Sequence record: PQ850604.1
DNA length: 44,876 nt
Origin: Escherichia phage Haito_Bas83
Strand: one strand, 5' to 3'
Shown: piece after piece, positions 6,123 to 43,407 of the stretch
Layout of the letters: each line of letters begins with the position of its first letter
How positions within the stretch are numbered: the stretch's first letter is position 1
Notes under the pieces: model-generated
What the model was told of the DNA's origin: nothing
Databases searched by the model: none
The model's input: only the letters and a program-made list of their open reading frames with translations
Translations under genes and position numbers: made by a program

Positions 6123-6157
6123 TTTGTTTTCCTTCATATCTCTGTTGGTGTGCAACC

Positions 6158-6187
6158 AATATAATGCGACCAATACCCGGATTGCAA
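6158..6187 (-). promoter_or_regulatory. putative sigma70-type promoter for the minus-strand moron
   Basis: TTGCAA, 18-bp spacer containing ATTGGTCGCA, then TATATT on the minus strand; a second ATTGGTTGCA copy follows. Confidence 0.3.
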
Positions 6188-6194
6188 GCGAATT

Positions 6195-6222
6195 TTGCGA
6201 TTATTTTTATCGCTGATAATAT
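6195..6222 (+). promoter_or_regulatory. putative promoter for the scaffold/capsid genes
   Basis: TTGCGA-16 bp-TAATAT; a hairpin GAGCGGG-TGG-CCCGCTC (6238-6254) lies in the leader. Confidence 0.3.
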
Positions 6223-6277
6223 TAGAAGCGTGAAGTCGAGCGGGTGGCCCGCTCTGCCACAATCCCAGGGGGATAGC

Positions 6278-6982
6278 ATGAAACTTACTAAAGCAGAATA
6301 TGACGCGTTGCCGGAAAGCATGAAGGCGCTTTTTGTTGCCGACGGCGATGGGTATAAGTCAACATTTATGTCCGCTGACGAAGTACAGGCGGAAATCAAG
6401 GGTCTGAAAGACAACAACGCAAAGCTGGTGAGCGAGAAGAAAGCAGAAGCTGAACGCCGCGCCGAAGCCGAGCGCCTTGCGAAAGAGAAAGAGGACGCCG
6501 CCGCGCGCAAAAATGGCGACCTCGAAGCGATTGATAAGTCCTGGAAGGATAAGTTTGCAAAACACGAAGCAGACACATCGGGGAAAATCGAATCCTATCG
6601 CAAGCAGATCCACGACCTTACTATCGGCAGCGCGGCCAAAGACCTGGCCTCGAAGCTGTTCGGTAAGAATGCTGGCATCATGCAACGCCACGTAATGGAA
6701 CGCCTCGCGCTGGAAGACGGCGAAGACGGCAGCTTGAAAGTGCGCGTCTTGCAGGATGGCAAACCGTCCGCTCTGACTATGGACGAGCTTGAAAAAGAGT
6801 TCCGTAATAACGCCGATTTTGCATCCGTCCTAGCTGGCACGCCAGCCGGTGGCGCTCCGAGCAAACCGACACAGGTTATCGAAGATGCGAAGTCTAAAAT
6901 CACGATGGGCCATAGCTTCGGTATCACCGACCTGACGAAACAGGCAGGGGATATCATCGCTAAGATGGGCGACGACGAGTAA
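6278..6982 (+). CDS. putative scaffolding protein
   Basis: Start at MKLTKAEY with RBS GGGGGATAGC; charged, helix-rich protein immediately upstream of the major capsid gene. Confidence 0.5.
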   Translation: MKLTKAEYDALPESMKALFVADGDGYKSTFMSADEVQAEIKGLKDNNAKLVSEKKAEAERRAEAERLAKEKEDAAARKNGDLEAIDKSWKDKFAKHEADTSGKIESYRKQIHDLTIGSAAKDLASKLFGKNAGIMQRHVMERLALEDGEDGSLKVRVLQDGKPSALTMDELEKEFRNNADFASVLAGTPAGGAPSKPTQVIEDAKSKITMGHSFGITDLTKQAGDIIAKMGDDE

Positions 6983-7079
6983 GCAGATCGCCCGCGAAAG
7001 CGGGCGATTTTGCTAGCGCGTAAATCTAAGGTAACATTAACGTCACTGGGCGAATGCTCACAACTCAAAGGATTTCGAT

Positions 7080-8174
7080 ATGTCTTTAACAGTGTTCCAG
7101 CGTAAACTCGTTACCGCGGTTACGCAAATGATCCCCGACAACCTGAACGTGTTCAACGCTGCCGCTAACGGCGCTGTTGTTCTCGGTACAGGTGAAGTGC
7201 TGAAGGACGTTGTAGAAAAAATGTCCGTAGGCTTGATCGCCAACCTCGTTACTGACCGTAACGCCTACGCCCCTGTCGGTACTCCGGCAACCGCTAAAGT
7301 GCTGGCGCGTATGCTGACCAACTCGGTTAACCTCTCCGCGAAAGTGGGTCCGGTAGCTATCACCAAGGCCATGATGGCTAAGATCGAAACCAACGTTAAC
7401 AGCGTTGCGGCTGAGATTGCGGCACAGGCTACTCAAGCGATTATGCTGCATTACCTGAAGGCCGGTATTGGCGCAAGTAAAGCGGCGATCGAGAGCAACG
7501 CAGCGGCAGCATACACCCAACCGGCGCGCGTTGATGGCGTTGGCGGTCGTACCTTCCCGACCCTGGCAGACTTCCCGCTGGCGGCTTCTAAGTTCGGCGA
7601 TCAGGCGTCTTTGATTAAGTCCTGGTTTATGGACGGCGTTACCTGGGCTAACTTCATTGCGTACCAGGCGCTGCCTTCTGCGGAGCAGGTATTCGCTATC
7701 GGCGATCTGCAAGTAATGGGTGATGGCCTGGGCCGTCGTTTCATTATCTCCGATGCCGCTGCCGATGCTATGGGCGCTGGTAAGATGCTGGGTCTGGTCC
7801 CTGGCGCGGTTGCAGTTACCACCAACGGCCTCGATATGCTGGCGCAGGAAAAAGGCGGTAACGAGAACATCGAGCGCTGGTGGCAGGGTGAGTTCGACTT
7901 CAACGTGGCTGTTAAAGGCTACCGTCTGAAGGCGTCCGCTCGTACTCCGATCGAAGGCGTCCGCTCTTTTGCCCTGGGTGATATCACCACTAAGGACAAC
8001 TGGGAACTGGATCAGGGCCAGGTTGACAACGCTCCGGCAACCGTCCAGGACGTTGGCGGCGAAAGCGATACTAAAGGCCGTCGTAAGGCGCAGACCGCAC
8101 AGGCCGTGCCGACCCGTAACATCAAGGAAACGGCTGGCGTACTGGTTACGCTGACTGCAACCAGCGCGTCTTAA
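7080..8174 (+). CDS. major capsid protein
   Basis: 364-aa ORF after the scaffold; followed by a strong terminator; position and size. Confidence 0.65.
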   Translation: MSLTVFQRKLVTAVTQMIPDNLNVFNAAANGAVVLGTGEVLKDVVEKMSVGLIANLVTDRNAYAPVGTPATAKVLARMLTNSVNLSAKVGPVAITKAMMAKIETNVNSVAAEIAAQATQAIMLHYLKAGIGASKAAIESNAAAAYTQPARVDGVGGRTFPTLADFPLAASKFGDQASLIKSWFMDGVTWANFIAYQALPSAEQVFAIGDLQVMGDGLGRRFIISDAAADAMGAGKMLGLVPGAVAVTTNGLDMLAQEKGGNENIERWWQGEFDFNVAVKGYRLKASARTPIEGVRSFALGDITTKDNWELDQGQVDNAPATVQDVGGESDTKGRRKAQTAQAVPTRNIKETAGVLVTLTATSAS

Positions 8175-8191
8175 TCGGCGCACATCCCAAA

Positions 8192-8217
8192 GGGGCGGGC
8201 TTATGCCCGCCTTTTTT
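8192..8217 (+). terminator. rho-independent terminator after capsid gene
   Basis: GGGGCGGGC-TTAT-GCCCGCC plus TTTTTT. Confidence 0.65.
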
Positions 8218-8232
8218 ATAGGAGCGAATAAA

Positions 8233-8733
8233 ATGTATGGCGACCCGCAAACCTTTACTGATTATGCCGCTGCGCGAGGCGTTGAAATTACGCTGGGCGA
8301 TGCAACGCGACACCTTACCATCGTTAATGACTTCCTCAACGGCCTCAACTGGATCGGCGAACAAGCAGACCAGACCGGAATCGACGCATGGCCCCGCATT
8401 AATTACCCGTCAGACGGTAAGCCGGTGCGAGACACGCTCACTGAAGTTGTGGCGGTAGTGCCTGCCGGGCAAATCGTAGACTTCGCATCAATCCCCGTTG
8501 CCGTTGAGCAAGCCGTTTACCGGCTGGCGATGCTGGTGGCGGACGATATTGATATTTCGCCGATCGGCGGTGGCAAGGAGACTATCCGCGAAACGGTTGG
8601 CCCGATTACGATGGAATATGACCCCGCTACAATTGGCGGATACGTGGCGTTCCCGTGGTGGGATGGCTTGCTGGGCTACTGGGTGAACGTAGACGGCAAC
8701 GCTTCAGGTAACTTTGACGTATACAGGGGCTAA
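8233..8733 (+). CDS. head completion / head-tail connector protein (putative)
   Basis: Start at MYGDPQ with RBS GGAGCG; position between capsid and tail genes. Confidence 0.35.
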   Translation: MYGDPQTFTDYAAARGVEITLGDATRHLTIVNDFLNGLNWIGEQADQTGIDAWPRINYPSDGKPVRDTLTEVVAVVPAGQIVDFASIPVAVEQAVYRLAMLVADDIDISPIGGGKETIRETVGPITMEYDPATIGGYVAFPWWDGLLGYWVNVDGNASGNFDVYRG

Positions 8734-8735
8734 TA

Positions 8736-8849
8736 TGAATCCGGCTGTTATTGCAGCGTTGCTGGCAGCGCTGGCGACGAAAGAGAAAGAGGAAGAACCC
8801 GTACCGCCGGAAGCACCGGCGCAGGAGGAAGACGATGGCGGGCTTTGAC
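8736..8849 (+). CDS. small hypothetical protein (37 aa)
   Basis: Short ORF MNPAVIAALLAALATKEK... between connector genes; not in the track (<60 aa). Confidence 0.2.
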
Positions 8850-9188
8850 TACGCGGGCTTAAAGCGGAAAGTTAATCCGCTGATTAAAAAATTCGGCATG
8901 ACAGTTACCGTGACGCGTCCTGGATCTGTTGACCGCGTTAACGGCGACGAAGTGGTAATCCCGCCGACCTCGTTTGATATCATCGGACTGCGTGAGGAGT
9001 ACAAGCCGCGCGAGATCGACGGTACTCGGGTCATTGCCGGTGATGTTAAATTCTTATGCCAGGCGGTGGCGCAAGTGCAGGTAGGCGATCTGGTTAACCT
9101 GAATAACGCAGACTACCGGGTCGTTAATACTAACCCACTGCAACCGGCTGGCACTTCCATGCTGTTTCAATTACAGCTAAGGGGCTAA
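8835..9188 (+). CDS. head-tail joining protein (putative)
   Basis: Start MAGFDYAGL with RBS GGAGGAAGACG; 117 aa; connector region. Confidence 0.4.
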   Translation: MAGFDYAGLKRKVNPLIKKFGMTVTVTRPGSVDRVNGDEVVIPPTSFDIIGLREEYKPREIDGTRVIAGDVKFLCQAVAQVQVGDLVNLNNADYRVVNTNPLQPAGTSMLFQLQLRG

Positions 9189-9189
9189 C

Positions 9190-9783
9190 GTGGCTGAGGT
9201 CTACTCGTTCGCCGCTACCATTGCAACATGGGTAGATAAGACGAAGGAGAACAACGACAAGGCGGTGCGGGCGACCGGTATGCAAATACTCGGACGCCTG
9301 ATTGAGATCTCCCCGGTGGGCGACCCCCGCCGGTGGAAGATTAACAAGGCTTATGCGATGGCCCGCCAGCACGCGAACAAGGTGAACGCCGCACAGCGCC
9401 GCAAGAATGGCGGCAAACTGAAGCGCGGGCAGAAGAAGCACGCCAGTGTGCTAGTATCGTTCAAGACTAAAAACGGCAACGTCACGTTCCGCCAGCGTGG
9501 CTGGGCCGCGAAGAATTACACCGGCGGGCGCTTCCGGGGAAACTGGCAGGTGTCTTTCGACCGTCCGGCTGTTGGCGCTGTTGACCGGGTGGACAAGGCC
9601 GGAACGGCAACATTGGCGGCGGGGCGTGACGTGCTGGCGCATTACGATTCTGGCGAATACGGGTCGATCTGGTTTACTAACAATGTGCCATATGCGCAGC
9701 GGCTTGAGTATGGATGGAGTAAACAAGCGCCCGCGGGGATTGTTCGCGTCGTAGCGGCAGAAATCAATTCGAAGGTGAAATAA
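9190..9783 (+). CDS. HK97 gp10-like tail component protein (putative)
   Basis: GTG start after AAGGGG; C-terminal IWFTNNVPYAQRLEYG resembles the gp10-family motif. Confidence 0.45.
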   Translation: MAEVYSFAATIATWVDKTKENNDKAVRATGMQILGRLIEISPVGDPRRWKINKAYAMARQHANKVNAAQRRKNGGKLKRGQKKHASVLVSFKTKNGNVTFRQRGWAAKNYTGGRFRGNWQVSFDRPAVGAVDRVDKAGTATLAAGRDVLAHYDSGEYGSIWFTNNVPYAQRLEYGWSKQAPAGIVRVVAAEINSKVK

Positions 9784-10205
9784 TGAGCAATACTATAATC
9801 CGCAAGGCGCTTAACAGCGTAGTTGAAGAATTATCGGTAAGCCTGAGCACTAACCAGCGCCCGATCAAGGTTAACTGGGAGAACGTGAAGGGCGACCACG
9901 CTATCGGCAATGGCGTGTACCTGGAGCCGTACTTGCTTCCGGCACCGACCCAGTTTGTTGGCATTCAGCAGAAGGGCCGGATCTACGCAGGCGTGTATCA
10001 GGTTGCCGTAGTGTTCCCCGCGGGCACTGGCACACAGTATGCGAGCGAACTGGCGGACGCCATAGCGACGTCAGACAAATGGCAGGGCGTAAAGATTACC
10101 GGCGCTACCTTCCAGCTTCAGGACGCGCCCTACACCAGTTCGGTGATTGAAGATATCGACCGCGCCCGCATCGTGGTATCGGTCCTGTATAACTGTTGCG
10201 CCTGA
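9783..10205 (+). CDS. tail terminator / tail completion protein (putative)
   Basis: 140 aa; ATG overlaps upstream stop (TAATG); immediately upstream of the major tail gene. Confidence 0.4.
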   Translation: MSNTIIRKALNSVVEELSVSLSTNQRPIKVNWENVKGDHAIGNGVYLEPYLLPAPTQFVGIQQKGRIYAGVYQVAVVFPAGTGTQYASELADAIATSDKWQGVKITGATFQLQDAPYTSSVIEDIDRARIVVSVLYNCCA

Positions 10206-10266
10206 TTTGGCGCAATTCTGCGCGTGCTGTATCATTAATCCGTATATCTAAACAGGAGCTTTCATT

Positions 10267-10992: not shown

Positions 10993-11022
10993 TTTGGTCG
11001 CTTAAATAGCGAGTGTTAATAT

Positions 11023-11046
11023 GGGGCCAGCACGGCCCCTTTTTTA
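11023..11046 (+). terminator. rho-independent terminator after major tail gene
   Basis: GGGGCC-AGCAC-GGCCCC plus TTTTTT. Confidence 0.6.
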
Positions 11047-11061
11047 TTGGAGAATATTACA

Positions 11062-11424
11062 ATGGCTAAAGCACCACTCTTCACACTTGACCCTAAGCCG
11101 ACCTTTAAGCTGCCGATTGAGATCCCGCGCCCTGGTGAGAACGAGCCGGGCAAGATGACCTTTACCGTCCGCCACCGCCCGATCGACGAGTTTTCGCAGA
11201 CCATGCAGGACACCGAGCGCAAGCTGTCGGAATATGACGACAATGACCCGGACGGCTTTAACGTTATGGTTGAGGCCATCATGCACGTCGCTGAAGGCTG
11301 GAATCTGCCAGACCAATTTAACGCTGAGAACGTCCGCCGCCTGGTAGTCAACTACCCGCGCGCGTTCGGCGTGTTCCACACCTCGTACTATCTCGAATTG
11401 ATGGGATTGCGTGAAAAAAACTAA
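11062..11424 (+). CDS. tail assembly chaperone (G-like)
   Basis: ATG at 11062 with RBS GGAGAA (the track ORF begins at a TTG at 11047); ends at slippery site A_AAA_AAC. Confidence 0.6.
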   Translation: MAKAPLFTLDPKPTFKLPIEIPRPGENEPGKMTFTVRHRPIDEFSQTMQDTERKLSEYDDNDPDGFNVMVEAIMHVAEGWNLPDQFNAENVRRLVVNYPRAFGVFHTSYYLELMGLREKN

Positions 11425-11740: not shown

Positions 11741-11925
11741 AAGCGGGACGGATCGGGACGTCCCGATTTGTCCCGTTTTGTCCCGCCACCTGCAAAACTG
11801 CATACCTACTCACTTTCATTGCATAAACTAAAAGCGGGACGAGCGGGACGTCCCGATCCGTCCCGCCCCTAAATGTGCATACCTATTCAGATTTCGTGCA
11901 TAAAACAAACGGGACAGAAAGCGGG
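11741..11925. repeat. tandem ~95-bp imperfect direct repeat with palindromic CGGGACGTCCCG core
   Basis: Copy 1 at 11741-11830 and copy 2 at 11834-11920 share GCGGGAC..CGGGACGTCCCGAT..GTCCCGCC..TGCATACCTA(C/T)TCA..TGCATAAA. Confidence 0.5.
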
Positions 11926-12065
11926 ACAAACATGGGGCGGGACAAAGCGGGACAGCACCCCGTCCCCGTCAGTGCTGCCGCGGGTTTTAGCCGATCGGGA
12001 CAAGCGGGACAAACCCCAGTCTTTCAGACTAGACGGGGGTCAATGGCCCCCCTCGTCTGAGACTG
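11910..12065. repeat. composite element copy A: GCGGGACA iteron array plus conserved long hairpin
   Basis: Direct CGGGACA/GCGGGACA repeats at 11910, 11921, 11937, 11947, 11995 and 12004, and a hairpin at 12017-12065; near-identical to 39629-39786. Confidence 0.6.
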
Positions 12066-16202: not shown

Positions 16203-16943
16203 ATGTTAACGAAAAAGGTTAAGAGCGATATCGCCGCACACGTTGCGGCATGTCTGCCTGAAGAAGCGTGCGGCCTGGTCGTCATGGTGGGCCGTAAGCA
16301 AGTATTTATCCCGTGCCTGAACGTGTTCGAAGACCCGACCGGCGCGCGATCGCGTAAGGACGCGTTTACAATTAGTGATATGGCATGGATGGGCGCCGAG
16401 GATATTGGCGACGTCGTGCGCGTAGTCCACTCACATCCAGGTCAGCGGGAGTTAACCCCATCATTGGGCGACGTTAACGGATGCAACGGCAGCGGCATAG
16501 TGTGGACCATTACTAACGAGTACGGCGACTTTATCGAGATCGACCCTGAAGACCCACCACTGGTAGGTCGCCGATTTGTTCTCGGAATTACGGATTGCTA
16601 TGGCCTCGTCATGGACTGGCACAAAAAGCAGGGCGTGAATCTGCCTGACTTCCGCGTGCCGTACAACTGGTGGGAGATGGGCGAAAGCCTGTACATGGAT
16701 AACTGGTATGATGCGGGATTCAGGGAGTGCGCGGAGAATACGCCGGGGGCAATGGTCATCATGCAGATTAGCGCACCAGTGCCAAACCATGCTGGGATCT
16801 TCCTTCCGGGCAACCAACTACTACACCATATCTACGGCAGCCTGTCGAGCGTGGTCCCCTTCCGGGCAGGATTTTTCCGCGACAATGTGGTTAAATGGGT
16901 ACGTCATAAAGACTTACCTGGGGAAATCACAGAATGGCAATGA
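16203..16943 (+). CDS. tail assembly protein K-like (MPN/JAMM + NlpC/P60)
   Basis: HSHPGQRELTPSLGD JAMM-like motif and a downstream Cys/His region (DCYGLV, HAGIF); position before I and J. Confidence 0.65.
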   Translation: MLTKKVKSDIAAHVAACLPEEACGLVVMVGRKQVFIPCLNVFEDPTGARSRKDAFTISDMAWMGAEDIGDVVRVVHSHPGQRELTPSLGDVNGCNGSGIVWTITNEYGDFIEIDPEDPPLVGRRFVLGITDCYGLVMDWHKKQGVNLPDFRVPYNWWEMGESLYMDNWYDAGFRECAENTPGAMVIMQISAPVPNHAGIFLPGNQLLHHIYGSLSSVVPFRAGFFRDNVVKWVRHKDLPGEITEWQ

Positions 16944-21002: not shown

Positions 21003-21024
21003 GGGCCAGATGGCCCCTTTTTTA
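21003..21024. terminator. rho-independent terminator after J
   Basis: GGGGCC-AGAT-GGCCCC plus TTTTTT; the convergent minus-strand gene ends at 21022. Confidence 0.6.
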
Positions 21025-21987
21025 ATAGATGTTAGGGATGACTAATAGCGGGGTGGGTACGGCAATATTTTTGCCCGGCATTTGGAATTGCTGCCGTGAG
21101 TAGTTGCCAATAACGCGGTTTTTAGCGATGCGCACATTATTACCCGCCATTCGTATCCCGTTCATGCGCACATGGTTATAGCCTCCGTTGTTCTCAATGA
21201 GCGCACCGGTATATGAAAGCTGGATCAGACTATTACCGATGTGCTGGTCGCCGCCACCGATATTAATCGTTCGGTCGTAGACAAACGGCTTGTTTACCGT
21301 CGAGAACGTGACCTGCCCCTGGTTGTTAGTCATGGTGATACCGGTCCCCGGTGAGGGCGGCGTATTGTTGAATATGACCAGGTCCATATCAACGGCAGCG
21401 CCTACGTCGTCAATCCCGCCATAGGACGCATTACGGACAATGATACTTCCGCCATCGAAGCCAACCGATACGTTGCCGTCGTCCCAGCGCGCGAACGGGA
21501 CACCGCCGACTGGTAGCGGCATACTTCCGTTTACATGCACGCGCTGCGCATATCGGCACGTCATTAGCCGTGATACGTTGGATATGGCGGTGAAGTCCGT
21601 TGAGTTAGCCACCAGTAAGCCCGCATTGCGTGACCCCACCGGCAGCACTTCCATAATCACCCCGCCCCATGTTGGAAGCCCGCTGTATGCGTTATAGGCG
21701 TCCTCACCGCGCAAGGTGATTCCGCCATCCCCGTTACGTTGTATCGACGTCACATAAAACGGGTCTGGCAAGACCAGGGTCTGGTCGAATACCTCAATCA
21801 CTTCAACCGGATTAGTTAGGGCAACGACCAGTTCGGACCCTGGTGTCAGCGGTGTGTTAATGGACAGCGTCTTGTCAGACTGACAGCGCTGATTAAAGGT
21901 AGTGCAAAACGACGGAGCGCGAAGGCCCGCGGTTATCTCCATGACAGGTCTACCGTCGTTGTAGTCGATTAATATTCCGGCACCCAT
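21022..21987 (-). CDS. putative receptor-binding protein (opposite strand, downstream of J)
   Basis: 321 aa from ATG 21987 (RBS GGGAGTGG); Gly/Asn-rich with repetitive strand-like segments; translationally coupled to the upstream lipoprotein gene; location matches separately encoded RBP loci of siphoviruses. Confidence 0.35.
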   Translation of the reverse strand: MGAGILIDYNDGRPVMEITAGLRAPSFCTTFNQRCQSDKTLSINTPLTPGSELVVALTNPVEVIEVFDQTLVLPDPFYVTSIQRNGDGGITLRGEDAYNAYSGLPTWGGVIMEVLPVGSRNAGLLVANSTDFTAISNVSRLMTCRYAQRVHVNGSMPLPVGGVPFARWDDGNVSVGFDGGSIIVRNASYGGIDDVGAAVDMDLVIFNNTPPSPGTGITMTNNQGQVTFSTVNKPFVYDRTINIGGGDQHIGNSLIQLSYTGALIENNGGYNHVRMNGIRMAGNNVRIAKNRVIGNYSRQQFQMPGKNIAVPTPLLVIPNIY

Positions 21988-21989
21988 TA

Positions 21990-22211
21990 TTACCACTCCC
22001 GTGATTTAACTGATACAGTACCGGAAAAATTGCCGTCGCTATCGGCAGACAGGCCAGTGAAGCGCATGTCAACATCTCCGGCAGGGACTTTTTGCCCGTC
22101 AACGTAACGCAACATGCAGCTTCCGTAAGCCACCGTAATGCAATCACCGTTGTTGCGTTCTACAGCACAACCGGACAAAAGGACCGCACAAATCATAATT
22201 AAAGTTTTCAT
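21990..22211 (-). CDS. small lipoprotein, superinfection-exclusion candidate (Cor/Llp-like)
   Basis: Start at 22211 with RBS AGGAG; signal peptide MKTLIMICAVLLSGC with lipobox LSGC; 73 aa; adjacent to receptor-binding genes. Confidence 0.5.
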   Translation of the reverse strand: MKTLIMICAVLLSGCAVERNNGDCITVAYGSCMLRYVDGQKVPAGDVDMRFTGLSADSDGNFSGTVSVKSREW

Positions 22212-22291
22212 GTTATCATCTCCTATATTTGGTTGAGTTTTAGTATTACACCGCTCAACCAAGAATGCAACCAATTTATGAGGATTCAGCT

Positions 22292-25279: not shown

Positions 25280-25309
25280 ACTATAGTGCAACCAACCTAT
25301 TGGTTGCAA
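25280..25309 (-). promoter_or_regulatory. putative promoter containing palindromic TGCAACCAA..TTGGTTGCA
   Basis: Minus strand reads TTGCAA, 18-bp spacer, TATAGT; the palindrome at 25288-25308 occupies the spacer. Confidence 0.3.
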
Positions 25310-27148: not shown

Positions 27149-27228
27149 CGTAATGTCTCCAGGTATTAAAAAGGGCGTCCAACCGGACACCCTTAAGATA
27201 ATGCAACCAATCTAATTACGCAACCAAT

Positions 27229-30144: not shown

Positions 30145-30423
30145 CTACGCGACCAATTCAGCAACCAATAAATCGCAGTCGGCTATGTTGTCAATAACGC
30201 GAACGTCAGCACCGCGGCGGGCCATTCGCTCATGTTCTCGCACCTGGTGCGGCTTCGGTTTTCCGCCGGGGCGCTTCACTTCGACGAATACTATGATGCC
30301 GTTGATGATAATAATCAGGTCGGGCGCACCTGCGCGCCCCTCCCATGCCAGTTTACGGCAGAATCCGCCGACCTCTTTCACCCGTCGCATCAGGTGGCTT
30401 TGTATCTTGCCTTCGGGTGTCAT
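30145..30423 (-). CDS. VRR-NUC domain nuclease
   Basis: 92 aa; GAPDLIIII...VFVEVKRPGGKPKPHQ matches the PD-(D/E)xK pattern of VRR-NUC. Confidence 0.6.
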   Translation of the reverse strand: MTPEGKIQSHLMRRVKEVGGFCRKLAWEGRAGAPDLIIIINGIIVFVEVKRPGGKPKPHQVREHERMARRGADVRVIDNIADCDLLVAELVA

Positions 30424-33924: not shown

Positions 33925-34014
33925 TTTCCAATTCCTCATTTTCACATTTATCGGGGTTATTGTGAGCCACCCCGTTCGGCTTGGTTGCTAATTTACTTGG
34001 TTGCGCCTAAGCGG

Positions 34015-34257
34015 TCAAGCACTTTTATTAAAAAGATTTCGTGTCACGTAGTTGGTGGCGTTCTCGATCCAGCTTAACGGCGGGCGGTCGATGTGCTTCT
34101 CAACCCAGTCGACGGCGACGTCGCTATATCCGTCGTCCAGCCAGCGGGACGGATGGCGAATCATCCAGGCCACCATTAACACGCCTTGCACGCAATGCAG
34201 GATAAATCCCAGCGCGCCGAGCATAATCATCAATACGAATGCGAATACCTTATTCAT
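34015..34257 (-). CDS. small membrane protein (putative)
   Basis: 80 aa; N-terminal hydrophobic helix FAFVLMIMLGALGFIL. Confidence 0.4.
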   Translation of the reverse strand: MNKVFAFVLMIMLGALGFILHCVQGVLMVAWMIRHPSRWLDDGYSDVAVDWVEKHIDRPPLSWIENATNYVTRNLFNKSA

Positions 34258-36080: not shown

Positions 36081-36128
36081 TGTCTCGTCCTCTAAAAATA
36101 GGCCCGCAGATTAGCGGGCCGGATAATA

Positions 36129-36650
36129 TTAATCTTCTAATTCGAAATACGTTTCTACGATTTCTTTTAAATCTTTATGGAAGTCTTCGACGTCGTCATC
36201 TTCCAGCTTGGCGACGGATTTAATTTCGAACGCTTCCAGCAGATCATCAAATTCGTCGTTTGCGTCGTCGTCATCGCCGCCTGCGATAATCGCGGCATAC
36301 TGCTTGATTTCGTCGCGCATCTCTTTCAGAGGATCGGCTTCTTTCTTGCCTTTACCTTTCGCCGGTGCTTTTTTAGACTTCGCAGGTGCTTCTTCCTCGT
36401 CCGCGTCGTCGTCTTCTTCTTCTACGGCTTCTTTCTTAGCCTTGCCCTTTGCAGGCGCTTTTTTGGACTTCGCCGGTGCTTCATCTTCAGCGTCGTCATC
36501 TTCGACTACTTCTTCTTTTGCCTTGCTCTTAGCCGGGGCTTTCTTCGCTTCCTGTTTACCAACGGCAGCGCCAGCAGTTTCGTAATGCTTAGCGATGGTT
36601 TCCAGTGCTACTACGCCGCGAGTGATCAGGTTTACGATTTGCTCAAACAT
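36129..36650 (-). CDS. lysine-rich repeat protein with acidic C-terminus (first gene of leftward early operon)
   Basis: RBS GGAGAT; three copies of (D/E)EAPAKSKKAPAKGK(A/G)KKE repeats; C-terminal DDDDANDEFDDLLEAF. Confidence 0.5.
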   Translation of the reverse strand: MFEQIVNLITRGVVALETIAKHYETAGAAVGKQEAKKAPAKSKAKEEVVEDDDAEDEAPAKSKKAPAKGKAKKEAVEEEDDDADEEEAPAKSKKAPAKGKGKKEADPLKEMRDEIKQYAAIIAGGDDDDANDEFDDLLEAFEIKSVAKLEDDDVEDFHKDLKEIVETYFELED

Positions 36651-36710
36651 GGTATATCTCCGATTGGTTAATTTAAGTGTTCGGTGCGGTATGCCCCGTC
36701 AACGAGGTGA

Positions 36711-36740
36711 ATAATAGGTTGGTTGCAGGTGGGGTGTCAA
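36711..36740 (-). promoter_or_regulatory. putative leftward early promoter
   Basis: Minus strand reads GTTGACACCCC (-35 TTGACA), 18-bp spacer containing TGCAACCAAC, then TATTAT. Confidence 0.4.
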
Positions 36741-36751: not shown

Positions 36752-36810
36752 AAAAAAAAAGCGCCGAAGCAAAATGCGACGGCGCTAACCAATAAGAGAC
36801 AATGAGACGG
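36752..36810 (-). ncRNA. candidate small RNA or attenuator (promoter-like TTGAAA-N17-AATAAT plus terminator)
   Basis: Minus strand: TTGAAA (36844-36839), -10-like at 36817-36822, then ~55 nt ending in hairpin GCGCCG-13 nt loop-CGGCGC plus nine T. Confidence 0.25.
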
Positions 36811-36857
36811 GGATTATTATTACACGCGTGCGCGCCCGTTTCAATATACAAAAGGAG

Positions 36858-36886
36858 TTGACACCCCGCAATTTTAGGTGTAGTTT
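36858..36886 (+). promoter_or_regulatory. putative rightward early promoter
   Basis: GTTGACACCCC (-35 TTGACA), 17-bp spacer, TAGTTT; an inverted copy of the same 11-mer lies at 36731-36741. Confidence 0.4.
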
Positions 36887-36917
36887 CGTTGGTCATTAAC
36901 CAATAGGAGACAGAACA

Positions 36918-37247
36918 ATGCATATCAACGACGCAATCGAAATGTTAACTAAGACCGTTAGTTGTGAGACAAGCCGGTCCTGGGCTTATACCGATGCCGT
37001 TGGTGCGGCGTTATTTGAAATCGAACGCCTGCGCAGTGTCGAAAAAGAATTGCGCGCCAAGCTGGAATTACTCAACGGTACGGCAGCAAGCAAGCTGCAA
37101 AAACACAATGAAGAAATGGAAGAATACAAAAAGCAGGTTATCCGTTTACGCGACGAGGGCAAGTCCTGGGCGATGATTGCCGAGTTGACCGGAATTAATC
37201 AGAGCACCGTGCGCTCCTGGGTACGCAATAATAAAACTTCTAAGTAA
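36918..37247 (+). CDS. HTH DNA-binding protein (putative transcriptional regulator)
   Basis: 109 aa; helix-rich with C-terminal HTH-like KSWAMIAELTGINQSTVRSW; first gene of the rightward operon. Confidence 0.5.
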   Translation: MHINDAIEMLTKTVSCETSRSWAYTDAVGAALFEIERLRSVEKELRAKLELLNGTAASKLQKHNEEMEEYKKQVIRLRDEGKSWAMIAELTGINQSTVRSWVRNNKTSK

Positions 37248-39522: not shown

Positions 39523-39628
39523 ATTTTGCGCGCATTGGTTGCCAAATTGAGTGTTTTTAGCTGGTCGCATTGGTTGCCGTGTAGTGTAAATATAGTGAAT
39601 AGTTATGCAGTTTTATTGCATAAAATAA

Positions 39629-39786
39629 GCGGGACAAAAAGCGGGACAGACAGGGGGCGGGACAAAGCGGGACAGCACCCCTTGTCCCGCCCGGATGGCG
39701 CGGCTTTCAGAGGAGCGGGACAGGCGGGACAAACCCCAGTCTTTCAGACTAGACGGGGGTCAGTTGGCCCCCCTCGTCTGAGACTG
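39629..39786. repeat. composite element copy B: GCGGGACA iteron array plus conserved long hairpin
   Basis: GCGGGACA at 39629, 39641, 39657, 39667, 39715 and 39724, inverted TGTCCCGC at 39683, hairpin at 39737-39786; near-identical to 11910-12065. Confidence 0.6.
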
Positions 39787-39945
39787 CATAAAATCCGGGA
39801 TTGCATAATGTACGGCAGCATGACGTGAATTGCGGTCGTCGACGAACTAGGCAACCAATGCGAGTTGTATTATGGGTGGTGAAAAATGCAGTTTGCAGTT
39901 ACAGCAGATAGCGATCAACTTTTTCATACGCATGATTAATATTGG

Positions 39946-39974
39946 TTGCATTCAGCCTGGCACCCTGCTAGATT
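39946..39974 (+). promoter_or_regulatory. putative promoter upstream of the 40005 gene block
   Basis: TTGCAT (inside ATTGGTTGCA), 17-bp spacer, TAGATT, followed by a second ATTGGTTGCA. Confidence 0.35.
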
Positions 39975-40004
39975 GGTTGCACCCCAACGAGAGGACCAAA
40001 CAAA

Positions 40005-40175
40005 ATGAAATTTCCAGTAACCATCAAAGACGGTAAATCAACTATCACCTTCACAAGCAACGACCAGGGCACCTATGAAAGCGGGGCGACTTGCATGTCT
40101 ACCCTGGACGATGTGATGATTCGTGTTAATTCCGGTAAAGCCTCGATTGTTGACGACAACACTAAGAAGGACTGA
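40005..40175 (+). CDS. small hypothetical protein (56 aa)
   Basis: RBS GAGGA; MKFPVTIKDGKSTITF...; not in the track (<60 aa). Confidence 0.35.
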   Translation: MKFPVTIKDGKSTITFTSNDQGTYESGATCMSTLDDVMIRVNSGKASIVDDNTKKD

Positions 40176-40178
40176 ACA

Positions 40179-40484
40179 ATGAGAGCATTAATCTGGAAAT
40201 ACTCACGGGCCATAGCGAAGCTGGACGAAGCGAAAAACACAAACGGCAACGTAGACTATGCGCGCCAGTTTGCGGCACGGGCACACCAACACATCATGAG
40301 TGCGCTCGACGATATGGACGCCAGCATGGATGACCTGGGTCCGCTGCGTAAGGCTATCCATGAATACGCGCTGGCATTCTCCCGTGAGCGCCTGGCCTAT
40401 CGCTTCGGTATCGGGGATAAGGCAGTGTCAAACGTCGCCCGGATTAAAGCACAGCGCGAACTATTCGCCCAGCTTGCGAAATAA
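40179..40484 (+). CDS. hypothetical protein
   Basis: 101-aa ORF closely following the previous gene. Confidence 0.45.
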   Translation: MRALIWKYSRAIAKLDEAKNTNGNVDYARQFAARAHQHIMSALDDMDASMDDLGPLRKAIHEYALAFSRERLAYRFGIGDKAVSNVARIKAQRELFAQLAK

Positions 40485-40493
40485 GGGGCCAAA

Positions 40494-40763
40494 ATGGGCC
40501 GTAGCCGAGCTAAACAGCTTTCTTGGCATATTCCCCTGCATTGCATACGAATATGGGCTAAGAACGCGATTGAGGGCGATTCCGTGTACTGGTGCTATCG
40601 CGATGACGTGAAGCCACTTACGCAGACCCGCTACTTGCACCAGTTCGCAGCACAACACGATTTCAGGGTGCGGACTTCCTTGCAACCAATGGGGATACGT
40701 ATTACATTACGCCGGAAGCCCGCCGTTGAGCGGGTAGGCAAACACTGGAGACTGAGCAAATGA
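40494..40763 (+). CDS. hypothetical protein
   Basis: 89-aa basic protein; RBS AAGGGG. Confidence 0.4.
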   Translation: MGRSRAKQLSWHIPLHCIRIWAKNAIEGDSVYWCYRDDVKPLTQTRYLHQFAAQHDFRVRTSLQPMGIRITLRRKPAVERVGKHWRLSK

Positions 40764-40893
40764 TGATAGGCGGATTCTCGCAGGAGTTTATCTACCTGCA
40801 TATGTGCGTACTTGACTACGAACAACACGGCATCGCTACGGTATGCGATGGCGACTATAAGACTGTTGACGAGATTGAGGAGACTGAGCAATG
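40759..40893 (+). CDS. small hypothetical protein (44 aa)
   Basis: ATG overlaps the upstream stop and its own stop overlaps the next ATG (ATGA). Confidence 0.25.
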
Positions 40894-41418
40894 AAATTAC
40901 TATTCCGCCGTAAGCGCGATGGATACATCATGAAGCCGATCCAGACCATGGCTAAATACGTGCGATTGCGCCACGTTCACAGCGGCATTGAGTGTATGAC
41001 GACTAAGGCAAATCTGCCGGAGGGGTACGACGTACTCACACATGATATTGAGCGCGGCGATGTGCTGCGTGATATTCGCCACGGCACTTGCTGGGTCGTC
41101 GAGTATGTCGGTCGGCACGGCTTGCGTATGCAATCCCGCGCGGATGGCGTAGTCGGGATGACTTACTTCGGGCTAATCCACTATGAGCGCGTGGGGCGCA
41201 AGTACAGCCTCCTCAAGTCGCAGCCGCATGAGCGCGCTACTTACGACGCGACCCAGGTGCAATCTAAAATACGCCGTGCTGCGCACGAAATCGTCAATCG
41301 CTTCGATGCCGTGGCGAATGCACAGCGCCATGCGCAGGAATTCGGTGTGGGATTTATCCGTGTCGAACCAGACGGCAGCATGAAGGCCATCGACCCGCGC
41401 TCGGTGATTCTGAAATGA
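40891..41418 (+). CDS. hypothetical protein
   Basis: 175 aa; RBS GAGGAG; no motif I recognise. Confidence 0.45.
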   Translation: MKLLFRRKRDGYIMKPIQTMAKYVRLRHVHSGIECMTTKANLPEGYDVLTHDIERGDVLRDIRHGTCWVVEYVGRHGLRMQSRADGVVGMTYFGLIHYERVGRKYSLLKSQPHERATYDATQVQSKIRRAAHEIVNRFDAVANAQRHAQEFGVGFIRVEPDGSMKAIDPRSVILK

Positions 41419-41561
41419 GCGCGACTATCCGTGATATGCTCATGCATAACCGCTTTGAGATAGGCGGGCGAGTGTTCTGCAATTACTTCGTGGCGCGTGC
41501 TTGGGCGCGCCATATTGGACAACCAGAGGGGGCAATACAATGCTATACATCCTCGCGATAA
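41415..41561 (+). CDS. small hypothetical protein (48 aa)
   Basis: ATG overlaps the upstream TGA; coding status uncertain. Confidence 0.2.
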   Translation: MSATIRDMLMHNRFEIGGRVFCNYFVARAWARHIGQPEGAIQCYTSSR

Positions 41562-41641
41562 TGTGCGGCGGCAGTCTTGCGGCCCTGGTCTTGTTGGCTG
41601 GGATTATCGGCCTGATTAAATACTTATGGTGCAAATTATGA
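41540..41641 (+). CDS. small membrane peptide (33 aa)
   Basis: RBS GAGGGGG; hydrophobic MLYILAIMCGGSLAALVLLAGIIGLIKYLW. Confidence 0.3.
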   Translation: MLYILAIMCGGSLAALVLLAGIIGLIKYLWCKL

Positions 41642-41925
41642 TACACGATCTGATATTTTGGTTTGGTTTGGGGTGTGCGTCGCTCTTTGCTATGGTGCTG
41701 GCGCTGCTGATTTGGATATTCCTGGTATGGCCCGCGGTGGAAGCAGCCAGCATTACCCGCATGACGTTCAAGATATACAAGCGCCGCGGCATATCGGAAC
41801 ACCCGACCAGGTTGCGCATGTGGTGGCTTTGGTATCTGGATATGATTGGCGGTCGAAGGTTTGAGGCCATCCGGTCATCCGGGTGGGAATGGAAAGGCGT
41901 CGGCAAGTGGTCCATTTTCGATTAA
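41638..41925 (+). CDS. membrane protein (putative)
   Basis: ATG overlaps the upstream stop (ATGA); one or two TM helices; Trp-rich. Confidence 0.4.
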   Translation: MIHDLIFWFGLGCASLFAMVLALLIWIFLVWPAVEAASITRMTFKIYKRRGISEHPTRLRMWWLWYLDMIGGRRFEAIRSSGWEWKGVGKWSIFD

Positions 41926-41942
41926 ATATGCAGTCGTGATAT

Positions 41943-41977
41943 AGTCCCAGTGAGCTAAAACTTACTGGGACTTTTTT
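41943..41977 (+). terminator. terminator hairpin immediately upstream of the lysis genes
   Basis: AGTCCCAGT-12 nt loop-ACTGGGACT plus TTTTTT, directly followed by ATG 41978. Confidence 0.5.
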
Positions 41978-42268
41978 ATGGATAAGCTAAACGAGTGGTT
42001 ATTCGCCCTCGCGTGTCTTGCAGGTGGCTTCGTTGGCGCTCGCATTCACGGTGAGGCAACGAAAGGGCCGCTAAATTTTGTGTTGTTTATCGTGGTCGGC
42101 TTCTTGTGCGCCGTGTTTGGGGCACCAGCTATTGCCGAGTGGTTTAATCTAACCGGACCGAGAACTGTCGCCGGTCTTGGCTTCGTAACGGCAATCTTCT
42201 GGATGCCGGTCGCCGCCAGAATCCGTGAAGCAATCTCCTCGTTCCGTCTGCCGGGGAATGCAAAATGA
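41978..42268 (+). CDS. holin (putative, three TM segments)
   Basis: 96 aa with three hydrophobic segments and a charged C-terminus; immediately upstream of the endolysin. Confidence 0.5.
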   Translation: MDKLNEWLFALACLAGGFVGARIHGEATKGPLNFVLFIVVGFLCAVFGAPAIAEWFNLTGPRTVAGLGFVTAIFWMPVAARIREAISSFRLPGNAK

Positions 42269-42504
42269 TTATCGCCATCCTGTTATTAGTGATCGGGGCT
42301 TCGTCGCTGTATAACGTATACGCGCCATCCGTCCAGGATGGCATTTGCGGACGGGTGCTCTACCTGCTTACAGCAATGACCTGTATTATTGGCCTGATGC
42401 AAACGGGGGACGTATCGAATACAGTCTGGTCCGTGCTAATCTGGCTATTCGCATTACGCACACTGCGTAATGCTGTTTTAAATGGGGTAAAACATGCGAT
42501 TTAG
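42265..42504 (+). CDS. second small membrane protein of lysis cassette (holin/antiholin-like)
   Basis: 79 aa, two hydrophobic helices; overlaps both neighbours. Confidence 0.4.
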   Translation: MIIAILLLVIGASSLYNVYAPSVQDGICGRVLYLLTAMTCIIGLMQTGDVSNTVWSVLIWLFALRTLRNAVLNGVKHAI

Positions 42505-42985
42505 CGACAACGGTCTAAGATTTACGGCAGCGTGGGAGTCGTTCAGCCCAGTGCCGTATTTCGCGACTAAGAAGGAGCAGGCCCGCGGCTTGTACACCTG
42601 GGGCTACGGTCATACTGGCACTAATCCGCCACAGAGCATTACCCGCGTGGAAGCGCTGGAGCTACTCAAGCGTGATGTGGCGTATGCCGAGAACTGGGTG
42701 AACAAGTACGCACACCCGAGCATCAATCAGGCGCAATTCGACGCGCTGGTGGATCTGGTAATCAATGCCGGTCAAGGTCCGATCGTACCGGATAACATTG
42801 CCAATGACTTCGATGACGCGGTGCGCATGGGTGATTGGGCCAAAGTCCGTGCTACGCTGCCGCAGTTCCGCAAGCAAGGCGGTGAAGTGCTCAAGGGCCT
42901 GGTACGTCGTGCAATCGGCAGACAGGCGCTATTCGATGGTAAGCAGTGGGACGTTGCCGAGAAAATCGGTCGTAACGCGGCATAA
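42494..42985 (+). CDS. endolysin (phage lysozyme family)
   Basis: 163 aa; N-terminal region FTAAWESFSPVPY...GLYTWGYGHTG resembles lysozyme-like endolysins. Confidence 0.7.
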   Translation: MRFSDNGLRFTAAWESFSPVPYFATKKEQARGLYTWGYGHTGTNPPQSITRVEALELLKRDVAYAENWVNKYAHPSINQAQFDALVDLVINAGQGPIVPDNIANDFDDAVRMGDWAKVRATLPQFRKQGGEVLKGLVRRAIGRQALFDGKQWDVAEKIGRNAA

Positions 42986-43001
42986 TAAGAGGAAACACAG
43001 T

Positions 43002-43169
43002 ATGTTAAAAAGTATTCTTGATCATAACGCGGACGCGCTTGCCGCACTGGCTAAAACGGAAGACCCAGGCGCGCGCGCCATTATCGCGGACACTATCAGT
43101 CATGCGGGTGTCTTTGACGCGAAGCTGCCAAGCCCGCCACCGCCGGAAGAACCAGACCCAGCGGCATAA
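43002..43169 (+). CDS. small hypothetical protein (55 aa)
   Basis: RBS AAGAGGAAACACAGT-ATG; Pro-rich acidic C-terminus; the longer track ORF 42765-43169 overlaps the endolysin and is rejected. Confidence 0.35.
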   Translation: MLKSILDHNADALAALAKTEDPGARAIIADTISHAGVFDAKLPSPPPPEEPDPAA

Positions 43170-43175
43170 ACACGA

Positions 43176-43201
43176 AGCCCGGTTAATTCCGGGCTTTTTA
43201 T
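43176..43201 (+). terminator. rho-independent terminator
   Basis: AAGCCCGG-TTAATT-CCGGGCTT plus TTTTT. Confidence 0.6.
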
Positions 43202-43205
43202 TGCT

Positions 43206-43235
43206 TGACTTGCAACCAACATAAGGGCCATACTG
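43206..43235 (+). promoter_or_regulatory. putative promoter with two TGCAACCAA motifs
   Basis: TTGACT, 18-bp spacer containing TGCAACCAAC, CATACT, followed by TGCAACCAAT. Confidence 0.3.
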
Positions 43236-43407
43236 CAACCAATCAACGAGAAGGAGTAACACACTATGACACGCAATGATATTTATGTACTGGCAATCTG
43301 GTCCGCCGCCGCATTCATCGGTATGGTTATTTGCGAATTGCTATAGCCCGCCGCCATAGGGACCGTGGTATATTGTCCACGGACCCATAATCAGGAAGTA
43401 AATTAAT

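Follow-up and report, generated by a model that had tools for sequence, protein, structure and literature searches.

A 10-base word embedded in sigma-70-type promoters of a Dhillonvirus genome as the putative operator of a phage-encoded regulator

The genome of Escherichia phage Haito_Bas83 (PQ850604.1) carries a non-random, intergenic and promoter-embedded motif, the 10-base asymmetric word ATTGGTTGCA, which has no conserved flanks. Its occurrence in about 12 host-type promoters, together with its strict genus-wide conservation, suggests that a regulator encoded by the phage most likely binds it. The fuller reading from sequence, that the motif is an operator overlying about 12 sigma-70 promoters of the non-structural units of Dhillonviruses, is favoured with a confidence slightly better than even. 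The regulator most likely controls the early/middle gene programme and is most likely not yet described; no description of the motif, of Dhillonvirus promoters or of Dhillonvirus transcription control was found in the literature searched. From gene content, we infer that the motif-bearing units form an early regulon. The motif provides a map of about 12 promoters, points to a regulon for which a single candidate regulator stands out, and defines a putative 10-bp operator that would be usable for annotating relatives, for engineering these phages and as an orthogonal genetic part.

The window, i.e. the whole stretch of 44,876 nucleotides analysed, is a complete Dhillonvirus genome of an HK578/SO-1-like coliphage and displays 98% identity with phage Bas85. 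In collections such as BASEL, and among therapy and biocontrol isolates, few coliphages are commoner than Dhillonviruses; these phages are virulent, and their known hosts are all Enterobacterales. No integrase or lysogeny gene is present among the annotations of Bas85, SO-1 and SSL-2009a, and no Rfam covariance model matched the window at gathering thresholds.

At up to one mismatch, 18 copies of ATTGGTTGCA were recorded in the whole genome as compared to 3.42 expected, and none of 100 shuffled controls reached 18 copies. The 9-mer TTGGTTGCA, the count of which had been proposed as a check in the preliminary description, was observed 11 times against 0.48 expected. An unbiased genome k-mer scan with a third-order Markov model as background also ranked the motif as both the top 9-mer and the top 10-mer by over-representation. 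Exact 8-mer cores fall in non-coding DNA, which makes up 6.8% of the genome, in 15 of 19 cases (binomial P = 1e-14), in line with the earlier statement that almost all copies are non-coding, and two of the four 'coding' cores lie within the last codons of genes. Exact or one-mismatch copies start at 6151, 6165, 22266, 25287, 25299, 27202, 27219 and 30160 in the left part, and at 36718, 39534, 39569, 39850, 39941, 39972, 43211 and 43234 in the right part. Copies starting at 30148, 33980 and 33996 have two mismatches, with TTGGTTGC or TTGGTCGC as an unchanged core, and degenerate copies are located at 22254-22263 (CTCAACCAAG) and 22229-22237 (TTGGTTGAG). The sites listed previously thus exist, some with coordinates one base off; copies absent from that list are 40681 (exact, conserved, intragenic) and 16809 (coding). 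Similarity among the copies stops at 10 bp.

In alignments of 10 loci, the motif columns exhibit 96.2% identity as compared to 84.5% for other non-coding columns (Mann-Whitney P = 1e-12); to judge by these alignments, the motif is clearly under purifying selection. It is retained in metagenomic relatives that are only about 71% identical, and the spacing of pairs is kept locus by locus while the spacer sequence changes. In relative L003, the flanks in the region of 22253 have been swapped for different sequence with two exact copies kept, and the copy at 40681 is invariant also where the neighbouring coding sequence has diverged. Some likeness among promoters is to be expected, since TTGCA is close to a -35 hexamer and a -10 hexamer can be completed by ATT or T; the copies could be remnants of promoter duplication or an accident of composition, with no dedicated function. 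This explanation is hardly credible, as chance is rejected by the shuffles and the Markov models, and the ATTGG half, which has no sigma-70 recognition role, is nevertheless as conserved as the TTGCA half. The maintenance of the motif in both orientations and after flank replacement argues against it as well.

A host transcription factor or nucleoid protein that binds the motif and is exploited by the phage is very improbable. Enterobacterales hosts could have such a factor in common, with nothing positive otherwise, whereas we know of no E. coli regulator with the motif consensus, and Jerseyvirus-like phages, which infect the same hosts and possess a similar, related replication module, are devoid of the motif. 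When bacterial genomes were scanned for direct pairs, none of the 120 matches listed fell in Enterobacteriaceae. Those listed were scattered single matches in unrelated taxa, uninformative on a host regulon; the matches listed from the corresponding scan of IMG/VR were mostly unrelated 27-nt coding tandem repeats, uninformative on other phage groups.

Promoters were assigned by consensus matches to sigma-70-type hexamers. The leftward promoter 6187 to 6158 (TTGCAA-N18-TATATT) contains an exact ATTGGTTGCA on the minus strand (6151..6160), conserved in relative L006, the ATT of which is the 3' end of the -10 TATATT, and a second minus-strand copy, ATTGGTCGCA (6165..6174), in spacer positions 8-17. 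The leftward promoter 22270 to 22243 (TTGCAT-N16-TAATAC) takes its candidate -35, TTGCAT, from the exact minus-strand copy at 22266..22275. The inverted pair TGCAACCAAC-CT-ATTGGTTGCA (25287..25308) belongs to promoter 25309 to 25280 (TTGCAA-N18-TATAGT), whose -35 TTGCAA comes from the right copy while the left copy occupies spacer positions 8-17. The minus-strand direct pair at 27202..27228, 17 bp from start to start, lies in promoter 27223 to 27195, where the upstream copy is the -35 TTGCGT and the downstream copy stands in the spacer, ending 1 nt before a -10 that reads TATCTT here and TATATT in relatives. A further minus-strand direct pair, 12 bp apart (30148..30169), supplies the -35 TTGCTG of promoter 30164 to 30136 (TTGCTG-N17-TATAGT) from its upstream copy, with the other copy in the spacer and a -10 identical across 10 relatives. 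The plus-strand direct pair at 33980..34005, 16 bp apart, runs against transcription from promoter 34018 to 33990 (TTGACC-N17-TAAATT); one copy occupies spacer positions 8-17 and the other begins immediately past the -10.

The leftward early promoter P_L (36711..36740, minus strand, TTGACA-N18-TATTAT) matches the consensus at 11 of 12 bases and carries its motif copy (36718-36727) in spacer positions 8-17, a 7+10+1 geometry also found in the distant relatives L021 and L025. Facing rightward on the plus strand is P_R, the promoter of a gene for a helix-turn-helix (HTH) protein (TTGACA-N17-TAGTTT, within 36858..36904), downstream of which stands the invariant, degenerate inverted pair TTGGTCATTAACCAAT (36889-36904). 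At the place of this pair, L021 and L025 have an exact TGCAACCAAT and L023 a one-mismatch copy, so that in all three the HTH gene has a motif copy downstream of its -10 and upstream of its start codon. The plus-strand direct pair at 39941..39981, 31 bp apart, is found in promoter 39946-39974, its first copy being the -35 TTGCAT and its second overlapping the -10 TAGATT/TATATT; across relatives the spacer length is fixed at 17 and the spacer sequence is variable. The intragenic plus-strand copy TGCAACCAAT (40681-40690) would form the -35 of a candidate internal promoter, TTGCAA-N17-TACATT (40680..40708). Just past a terminator, the plus-strand promoter 43205..43243 (TTGACT-N18-CATACT) has one copy directly past the -35 (43211-43220) and one overlapping the last -10 base (43234-43243). 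The motif marks the transcription units of non-structural genes (replication, nucleotide metabolism, accessory), and the promoter upstream of the long structural operon is of the extended -10 type, without the motif.

A promoter scan placed P_L, 34018, 25309 and 43205 exactly at motif sites, its genome-wide number of promoter-like sites being not above chance. In a stricter scan (at least 9 of 12 consensus bases), 9 of 19 motif sites overlapped a promoter-like match, as compared to 7.9% of other non-coding positions. The registers relative to -10-like hexamers are discrete, with hexamer offsets of -3, +11 and +28 on the same strand, the offset-28 peak comprising 13 of 61 sites, and of +9 on the other strand. 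When the sites are read against the gene table, their orientation with respect to the gene strand is mixed (11 versus 9). Pairs stand 12-35 bp apart and occur in both orientations, as reported previously; across pair spacings of 9-35 bp there is no helical phasing, and cooperative binding is therefore not evident. An inverted pair exists at only one of about 10 loci (25287-25308), and the 10-mer, having no internal two-fold symmetry, fails the test for a dyad-symmetric operator of the lambda/LexA type.

The motif also fails the test for a core sigma-70 element of fixed position and orientation; its mixed orientation and at least four registers indicate that it behaves as an operator overlying promoters, not as an element that RNA polymerase itself recognises. 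The preliminary description had offered 'promoter signature or operator', of which the operator-like part stands and a strict signature does not. Its statement that TTGCxx serves as the -35 holds at 27223, 30164, 39946 and 22270, and the second copy was likewise found beside or over the -10 in sigma-70-like promoters. As a general rule, a fixed -35 element was rejected, since on reading the site flanks a -10-like hexamer lies 16-18 bp downstream in only about 6 of 20 copies, and so was a discriminator or start region right after the -10, which is true of only about 7 of 19. When the consensus sequences of sigma-54, CytR, IHF, DnaA, lambda CII and GntR-type regulators were compared by eye, none matched the conserved ATTGG half. 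Several promoters have the motif as their sole -35-like hexamer, which fits activation too.

It is conceivable, though rather unlikely, that the motif is a positive element: a phage factor, possibly the sigma-region-4-like HTH protein, would bind it and bring in or reprogramme host RNA polymerase where the -35 is poor. The motif would then be a middle-promoter signature like the T4 MotA box or the lambda CII sites, and consensus early promoters could be repressed by the very same protein. At 27223, 30164, 39946, 22270, 25309 and 40680, the TTGCxx of the motif (3-4 of 6 matches) is the only -35-like hexamer, and a conserved -10 follows 16-18 bp downstream at all six; the offset-28 peak and the similarity of the HTH protein to Sigma70_r4_2 point the same way. 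However, a protein bound to the further copy that these promoters have, in the spacer or covering the -10/+1, should hinder polymerase, and the two orientations, the number of registers and the scarcity of correctly spaced -10-like hexamers speak against a positive element, as does the lack of any MotA or AsiA family in Pfam scans of 20 unassigned phage proteins.

All promoter-assigned copies lie within the RNA polymerase footprint, be it at the -35, in the spacer beside the -10 or spanning the -10/+1, and the majority of promoters have two, which suggests that binding would mainly occlude polymerase. Under the favoured operator reading, host polymerase would first fire the strong consensus promoters P_L and P_R; the regulator would then build up and turn down early/middle promoters, one HTH domain binding each 10-bp asymmetric site. 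That the regulator is mainly a repressor, and with it the sign of regulation, we purely infer. The HTH protein may also feed back on its own promoter via the weaker sites at 36889-36904.

A role of the sites in replication, recombination or module exchange instead of transcription, either as iteron-like sites bound by the helicase-primase or by some origin-binding protein, or as boundaries of recombination, is improbable. It would accord with the position of the HTH gene directly upstream of the helicase-primase gene, with the clustering of site orientation by region independent of gene direction, and with the 2-3 copies of the ATTGGTTGCC subtype that flank repeat region B, a repeat region in the SO-1 record. 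Between the helicase-primase gene and this GGGACA repeat region, two plus-strand copies of subtype (G)CGCATTGGTTGCC stand 35 bp apart (39534..39578), three in some relatives. A single minus-strand ATTGGTTGCC (39850..39859) is invariant in 14 relatives; no clear promoter was found by consensus match at the copies beside the region (39534, 39569, 39850). However, only 39534-39859 adjoins the repeat region; the copies are spread over at least 10 loci across 37 kb and not gathered at one origin, and with unphased spacings the motif fails the iteron test. The discrete registers within promoter hexamers and the end of similarity at 10 bp, unlike the expectation for recombination modules, also disfavour such a role.

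The likeliest candidate binder of the motif, as judged from sequence comparison, is the HTH protein (36918..37247, plus strand, 109 amino acids), already put forward for binding assays in the preliminary description; its co-occurrence with the motif, its invariance and the autoregulation-like sites are all compatible with such a role. It is the only recognisable sequence-specific DNA-binding protein of the genome, and its gene is predicted to be the first transcribed from P_R. The N-terminus of the protein is variable; residues 22-79 are predicted to form a long helix and residues 84-108 a C-terminal HTH, with Pfam matches to HTH_23, HTH_28 and Sigma70_r4_2 (E = 4e-6 for the last). Residues 47-106 are near-invariant among relatives with differing N-termini, paralleling the invariant motif; no altered recognition helix was found in relatives, the HTH being invariant in 24 of 24 homologues found and at all loci. 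Motif density is 3.8-13 sites per 10 kb in 7 of 7 genomes with the HTH protein as compared to 0.2-0.7 in 2 of 2 Jersey-like genomes without it, a co-occurrence confounded by common descent.

A more speculative and unlikely extension is that the HTH protein is the bifunctional global switch of a virulent siphophage, repressing early and activating middle promoters. On this view the protein would read ATTGG+TTGCA as an extended -35-like word: consensus early promoters with the word in the spacer or at the -10 would be silenced, and at middle promoters that have no other -35 the protein would replace sigma-70 region 4 or help it. Its lineage-variable N-terminal domain could contact host polymerase. 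Sigma appropriation or temporal control of this mode would be new for this phage type, and if the regulator both represses and activates, temporal control by small sigma-4-like proteins would gain a new case, from a phage depending wholly on host RNA polymerase.

Among known systems, P1 C1 operators and L5 gp71 operators/stoperators are asymmetric sites of 10-17 bp, many in number, dispersed genome-wide and some of them paired. The Dhillonvirus motif is likewise asymmetric, multi-copy and dispersed in intergenic and promoter DNA, with pairs in either orientation, and in both cases one HTH domain per site would be expected. P1 C1 and L5 gp71 are, however, repressors that confer immunity in temperate phages. 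Dhillonviruses are virulent, with no integrase or lysogeny gene annotated in Bas85, SO-1 or SSL-2009a; L5 stoperators are oriented with transcription while the orientation here is mixed, and neither operators nor repressors have sequence similarity to the motif or the candidate. In T4, also virulent, the MotA box lies at about -30 in one orientation and serves sigma appropriation with MotA and AsiA. Both are short asymmetric words that replace or overlap the -35 of host-polymerase promoters, and the motif may be likened to the box in marking a temporal class, but the latter has a single position and orientation and the former at least four registers, both orientations and usually two copies per promoter. 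The sites of phi29 p4 and lambda CI/CII overlap the -35 or -10, these regulators being able to repress one promoter and activate another, and CII recognises TTGC repeats at the -35 (TTGC-N6-TTGC). They are cases of phage HTH regulators over core promoter elements, as proposed here, but their sites are dyad-symmetric or fixed direct repeats, in contrast to a single 10-mer with variable pair spacing.

Serine-recombinase/Hin-type C-terminal HTH domains bind as monomers to asymmetric half-sites of 12-13 bp, variably spaced in res sites. In the predicted fold of the candidate protein, a small three-helix HTH likewise comes after a long helix, but the protein has no catalytic domain. A Foldseek search with the AF2 model returned E-values of about 1, which suggests that the resolvase-type match reflects an HTH of generic type. 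Superposition of the HTH part gives about 1 Å rmsd on the IstA HTH and ~1 Å on a resolvase HTH in one short match (2r0q_D), whereas long resolvase alignments (105-129 columns) fit poorly (8-17 Å). The single significant match in a PDB sequence search, 8vd6, has five near-identical HTH-like repeats, was deposited as 'CAP REPEAT' and is taken to be a designed protein, hence uninformative. Beyond generic HTH domains, the structure and sequence searches matched nothing; the protein's public 'transposase/resolvase' annotations are likewise based on the HTH alone.

In its 44,876 bp, the window comprises the complete genome of a Dhillonvirus, a virulent E. coli siphophage of the HK578/SO-1-like type; 173 phage records match it, and its identity to Escherichia phage RuthEpting_Bas85 (Bas85) is 98%. 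The Bas85 annotation, carried over to the window coordinates, places the plus-strand genes (HTH, helicase-primase, small genes, lysis, exonuclease, and terminase through tail) from 36918 to the window end and then at 1-20994. The minus-strand genes for replication, recombination and nucleotide metabolism extend from 36650 down to 24095, and the regions 5004-6137 and 21022-22211 are small insertions on the minus strand. The recurrence of ATTGGTTGCA noticed in the preliminary description stands against shuffled controls, as 18 copies at ≤1 mismatch are present in the window as compared to 3.42 expected, and none of 100 shuffles reaches 18; TTGGTTGCA occurs in 11 copies as compared to 0.48 expected. 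An unbiased scan of all 8-10-mers under a third-order Markov model returned the motif as the top 9-mer and 10-mer, and an origin of the motif by chance is the less likely explanation. Its mostly non-coding placement was also borne out: 15 of the 19 exact TTGGTTGC cores lie in non-coding DNA, itself 6.8% of the genome (binomial P = 1e-14), and two of the remaining four fall in the last codons of genes. All the sites listed in that description exist, some shifted by one base, while two copies had been overlooked, an exact one at 40681 and one in coding sequence at 16809. The sequence logo of 82 sites from four genomes displays an asymmetric 10-bp word, A-TTGGTTGC-A, with no conserved flanks.

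A consensus scan places sigma-70-like promoters exactly on motif sites at 36740→36711 (minus strand; TTGACA-N18-TATTAT, 11/12 consensus), which is P_L of the divergent early pair P_L/P_R, at 34018→33990 (minus; TTGACC-N17-TAAATT), at 25309→25280 (minus; TTGCAA-N18-TATAGT) and at 43205-43234 (plus; TTGACT-N18-CATACT). Conserved hexamers and spacer lengths in alignments provide further candidate promoters on the minus strand at 27223→27195 (TTGCGT-N17-TATCTT), 30164→30136 (TTGCTG-N17-TATAGT) and 6187→6158 (TTGCAA-N18-TATATT), and on the plus strand at 39946-39974 (TTGCAT-N17-TAGATT) and 40680-40708 (TTGCAA-N17-TACATT); a weaker candidate from the alignments lies at 22270→22243 (minus; TTGCAT-N16-TAATAC). 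In a stricter scan, 9 of 19 motif sites (5 of 10 loci) overlap a site of at least 9/12 consensus, against a background of 7.9% of non-coding positions away from the motif and 2.7% genome-wide. The number of promoter-like matches of the consensus scan over the whole genome is not above chance; hence, the promoter argument is based on the coincidence with the motif together with conservation, and not on the scan by itself.

No ATTGGTTGCA copy is found at 44767-44806, where a terminator (44767-44787) and, immediately behind it, an extended -10 TGTTATAAT (44798-44806) stand ahead of the terminase genes and the long structural operon; the motif thus marks the non-structural transcription units. The extended -10 is a candidate for a late promoter of another class. 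Copies in the divergent regions 6138-6277 and 22212-22291 are also upstream of scaffold and tail-fibre genes, and clear rightward promoters could not be assigned there.

The preliminary description had regarded the motif as a phage-specific promoter signature or as an operator for a phage or host regulator. Coincidence with sigma-70-like promoters supports the former idea in part; a fixed promoter element, however, is ruled out by the mixed orientation with respect to the downstream genes (11 vs 9, in our own reading of the sites against the gene table) and by the several discrete offsets. When the offsets of -10-like hexamers were analysed for 61 sites in four diverged genomes, they were found to cluster at discrete distances from the motif: the hexamer overlaps the 5' ATT of the motif (TAnATTGGTTGCA) at 18 sites, follows the motif by one base at 8, lies 17 bp after TTGCAx at 13, with the motif as the -35, and stands on the opposite strand directly before GCAACCAAT at 11. 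The spacer of P_L reads TTGACA-N7-TGCAACCAAC-N1-TATTAT, and this 7+10+1 register is retained in the distant relatives L021 and L025, along with a second overlapping copy. Most promoters hold two copies, and all promoter-assigned copies lie within the polymerase footprint.

Since all the assigned copies overlap core promoter elements, repression is the simplest way in which the motif would act. An activating or dual role is the chief alternative: the motif supplies the only -35-like hexamer of six promoters, and the HTH of the candidate binding protein resembles sigma region 4. Pure activation is disfavoured by the second copy that the same promoters hold within the spacer or across the -10. 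Binding of the motif by a host factor and a role in replication or recombination are considered less likely.

Ten motif-bearing intergenic loci were aligned with SO-1, SSL-2009a, LM40P1 (80% identical) and 14 IMG/VR Dhillonvirus pieces. Identity to the window is 96.2% in motif columns as compared to 84.5% in other non-coding columns (Mann-Whitney P = 1e-12), which indicates selection on the motif. Unrelated sequence has taken the place of the region ahead of the tail-fibre gene in LM40P1, yet it still contains two exact copies, and the intragenic copy at 40681 is invariant although the flanking codons have diverged. Pair spacing is kept locus by locus while the spacer sequence drifts, as in the 17-bp spacer between TTGCAT and TAKATT at 39946-39974. 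In metagenomic relatives whose match to Dhillonviruses covers half their length at only ~71% identity, the equivalent intergenic positions still hold copies, 8-13 of them per 6-20 kb. Counts of the motif do not exceed background in two Jerseyvirus-like phages whose replication module is related.

When the unassigned phage proteins were scanned against Pfam and PHROG, one was recognisable as a DNA-binding protein with sequence specificity, namely the 109-aa protein encoded at 36918-37247 (plus strand), whose residues 65-105 match HTH_23, HTH_28 and Sigma70_r4_2; its 'transposase/resolvase' label in public annotations is based on the HTH alone. Its gene is the first behind the strong promoter P_R (36858-36886, plus; TTGACA-N17-TAGTTT). 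In the AlphaFold model (pLDDT 84.5), a short helix precedes one of 58 residues, and the HTH forms the C-terminal part; all its Foldseek matches are generic HTH domains (IstA, resolvase, LuxR/GerE), at E-values of about 1. Residues 47-106 hardly vary among 24 homologues, and the N-terminal 45 residues vary by lineage. Motif density is 3.8-13 sites per 10 kb in all seven genomes with the protein, as compared to 0.2-0.7 per 10 kb in two related genomes that lack it. A motif copy is present between the -10 and the HTH start codon in L021 and L025 (exact TGCAACCAAT) and in a further relative, L023 (CGCAACCAAT), while Dhillonvirus proper has at the same position an invariant degenerate inverted pair, TTGGTCATTAACCAAT, a pattern as would be expected for autoregulation. 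This evidence, which makes the HTH protein a candidate binder of the motif, is circumstantial, as protein and motif share descent and no relative with a changed recognition helix was found.

The best-supported interpretation of these sequence comparisons is that the copies are dispersed asymmetric operators for a phage-encoded regulator. Host polymerase would fire the early promoters first, and the HTH protein would accumulate and then turn the regulon down. The closest analogues in mode of working are the dispersed asymmetric operators bound by C1 of phage P1 and by gp71 of mycobacteriophage L5, together with the MotA box of T4, a temporal signature of a virulent phage. The motif belongs to neither class, differing from P1 C1 and L5 gp71 in lysogenic immunity and site polarity, and from the MotA box in fixed position and MotA/AsiA. 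Neither the motif nor Dhillonvirus promoters are mentioned in the literature searched, including genome papers on YD-2008.s, vB_EcoS-B2, SH6, BASEL and anti-Tmn, and the annotated records examined (Bas85, SO-1, SSL-2009a) have no regulatory features at motif sites. It is a real, conserved regulatory motif of a familiar kind, apparently undescribed.

Other elements were recorded around the early promoters. Annotations conflict at 36129-36650, for which SO-1 and SSL-2009a give a minus-strand gene and Bas85 an overlapping plus-strand ORF (CDS 36191-36682). The minus-strand product (PHROG 3127), kept in L021 and L023, is somewhat histone H1-like, with Lys/Ala/Pro-rich 'APAKSKKAPAKGK' repeats alternating with acidic runs. 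A strong intrinsic terminator (36101-36120, minus; GGCCCGC...GCGGGCC + TATTTTT) lies immediately behind the first leftward early gene, ahead of the ribosome-binding site that follows, a position which suggests that the leftward operon is controlled by attenuation or antitermination. In alignment, most other Dhillonviruses have a ~190-bp insertion between 36681 and 36682, absent from the window, Bas85-like genomes and the comparison sequences L003 and L018; in SO-1 it shows no tRNA and no significant Rfam match.

A candidate small RNA of ~58 nt (36752-36844, minus), with no Rfam match, lies between the divergent early promoters. Its promoter would be TTGAAA-N17-AATAAT with TG (36844→36816), and behind an unstructured 5' part come a hairpin (36761-36785), whose pairing is maintained by different sequences in L003/L018 and L021, and a U9 tract. 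In the window, the 5' part (UGUCUCUUAUUGGUUA) and the ribosome-binding region of the HTH mRNA (36897-36912) are complementary, one G-U pair included; the complementarity is lower in relatives. The word TAACCAAT-N-(G/A)GAGA recurs at 36663-36672 (minus-strand reading), 36786-36801 and 36897-36912. Two of these copies shortly precede the start codons of the two first early genes, and the other is within the candidate small RNA locus; a function as a weak operator or as a leader element at the RNA level is possible.

Two GGGACA(A/G) repeat arrays (11778-12030 and 39629-39740; GCGGGACAAA, 7 copies vs 0.11 expected) share a longer identical stretch (ACCCCAGTCTTTCAGACTAGACGGGGGTCA), and their equivalents are annotated as repeat regions A and B in the SO-1 GenBank record. 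They may possibly serve as an origin, and the HTH protein could equally bind these repeats. The motif scan of the IMG/VR viral collection was dominated by long 27-nt-period arrays containing GCAACCAAT in unrelated contigs (L032 11280-11585, L040 10131-10490 and others); they are taken to be putative coding repeats, which would read ...AATNTG..., and the resemblance to the motif is by chance. The 8-mers ACGGCAGC (31 vs 3.3 expected), CGCTGCCG and CAACGGCA are strongly over-represented in the whole window; the ACGGCA core tracks gene orientation (plus-gene blocks 50:16, minus-gene blocks 14:20), which makes codon or dipeptide usage the likely explanation, and ACGGCAGC itself retains a plus-strand bias of 25:6. 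In the Jersey-like phage EM1 a different word is over-represented, ATAGTACC(C)/GGGTACTAT (8-mer, 10 copies vs 1.1 expected in the whole genome), which may be an analogous promoter-associated motif of that lineage.
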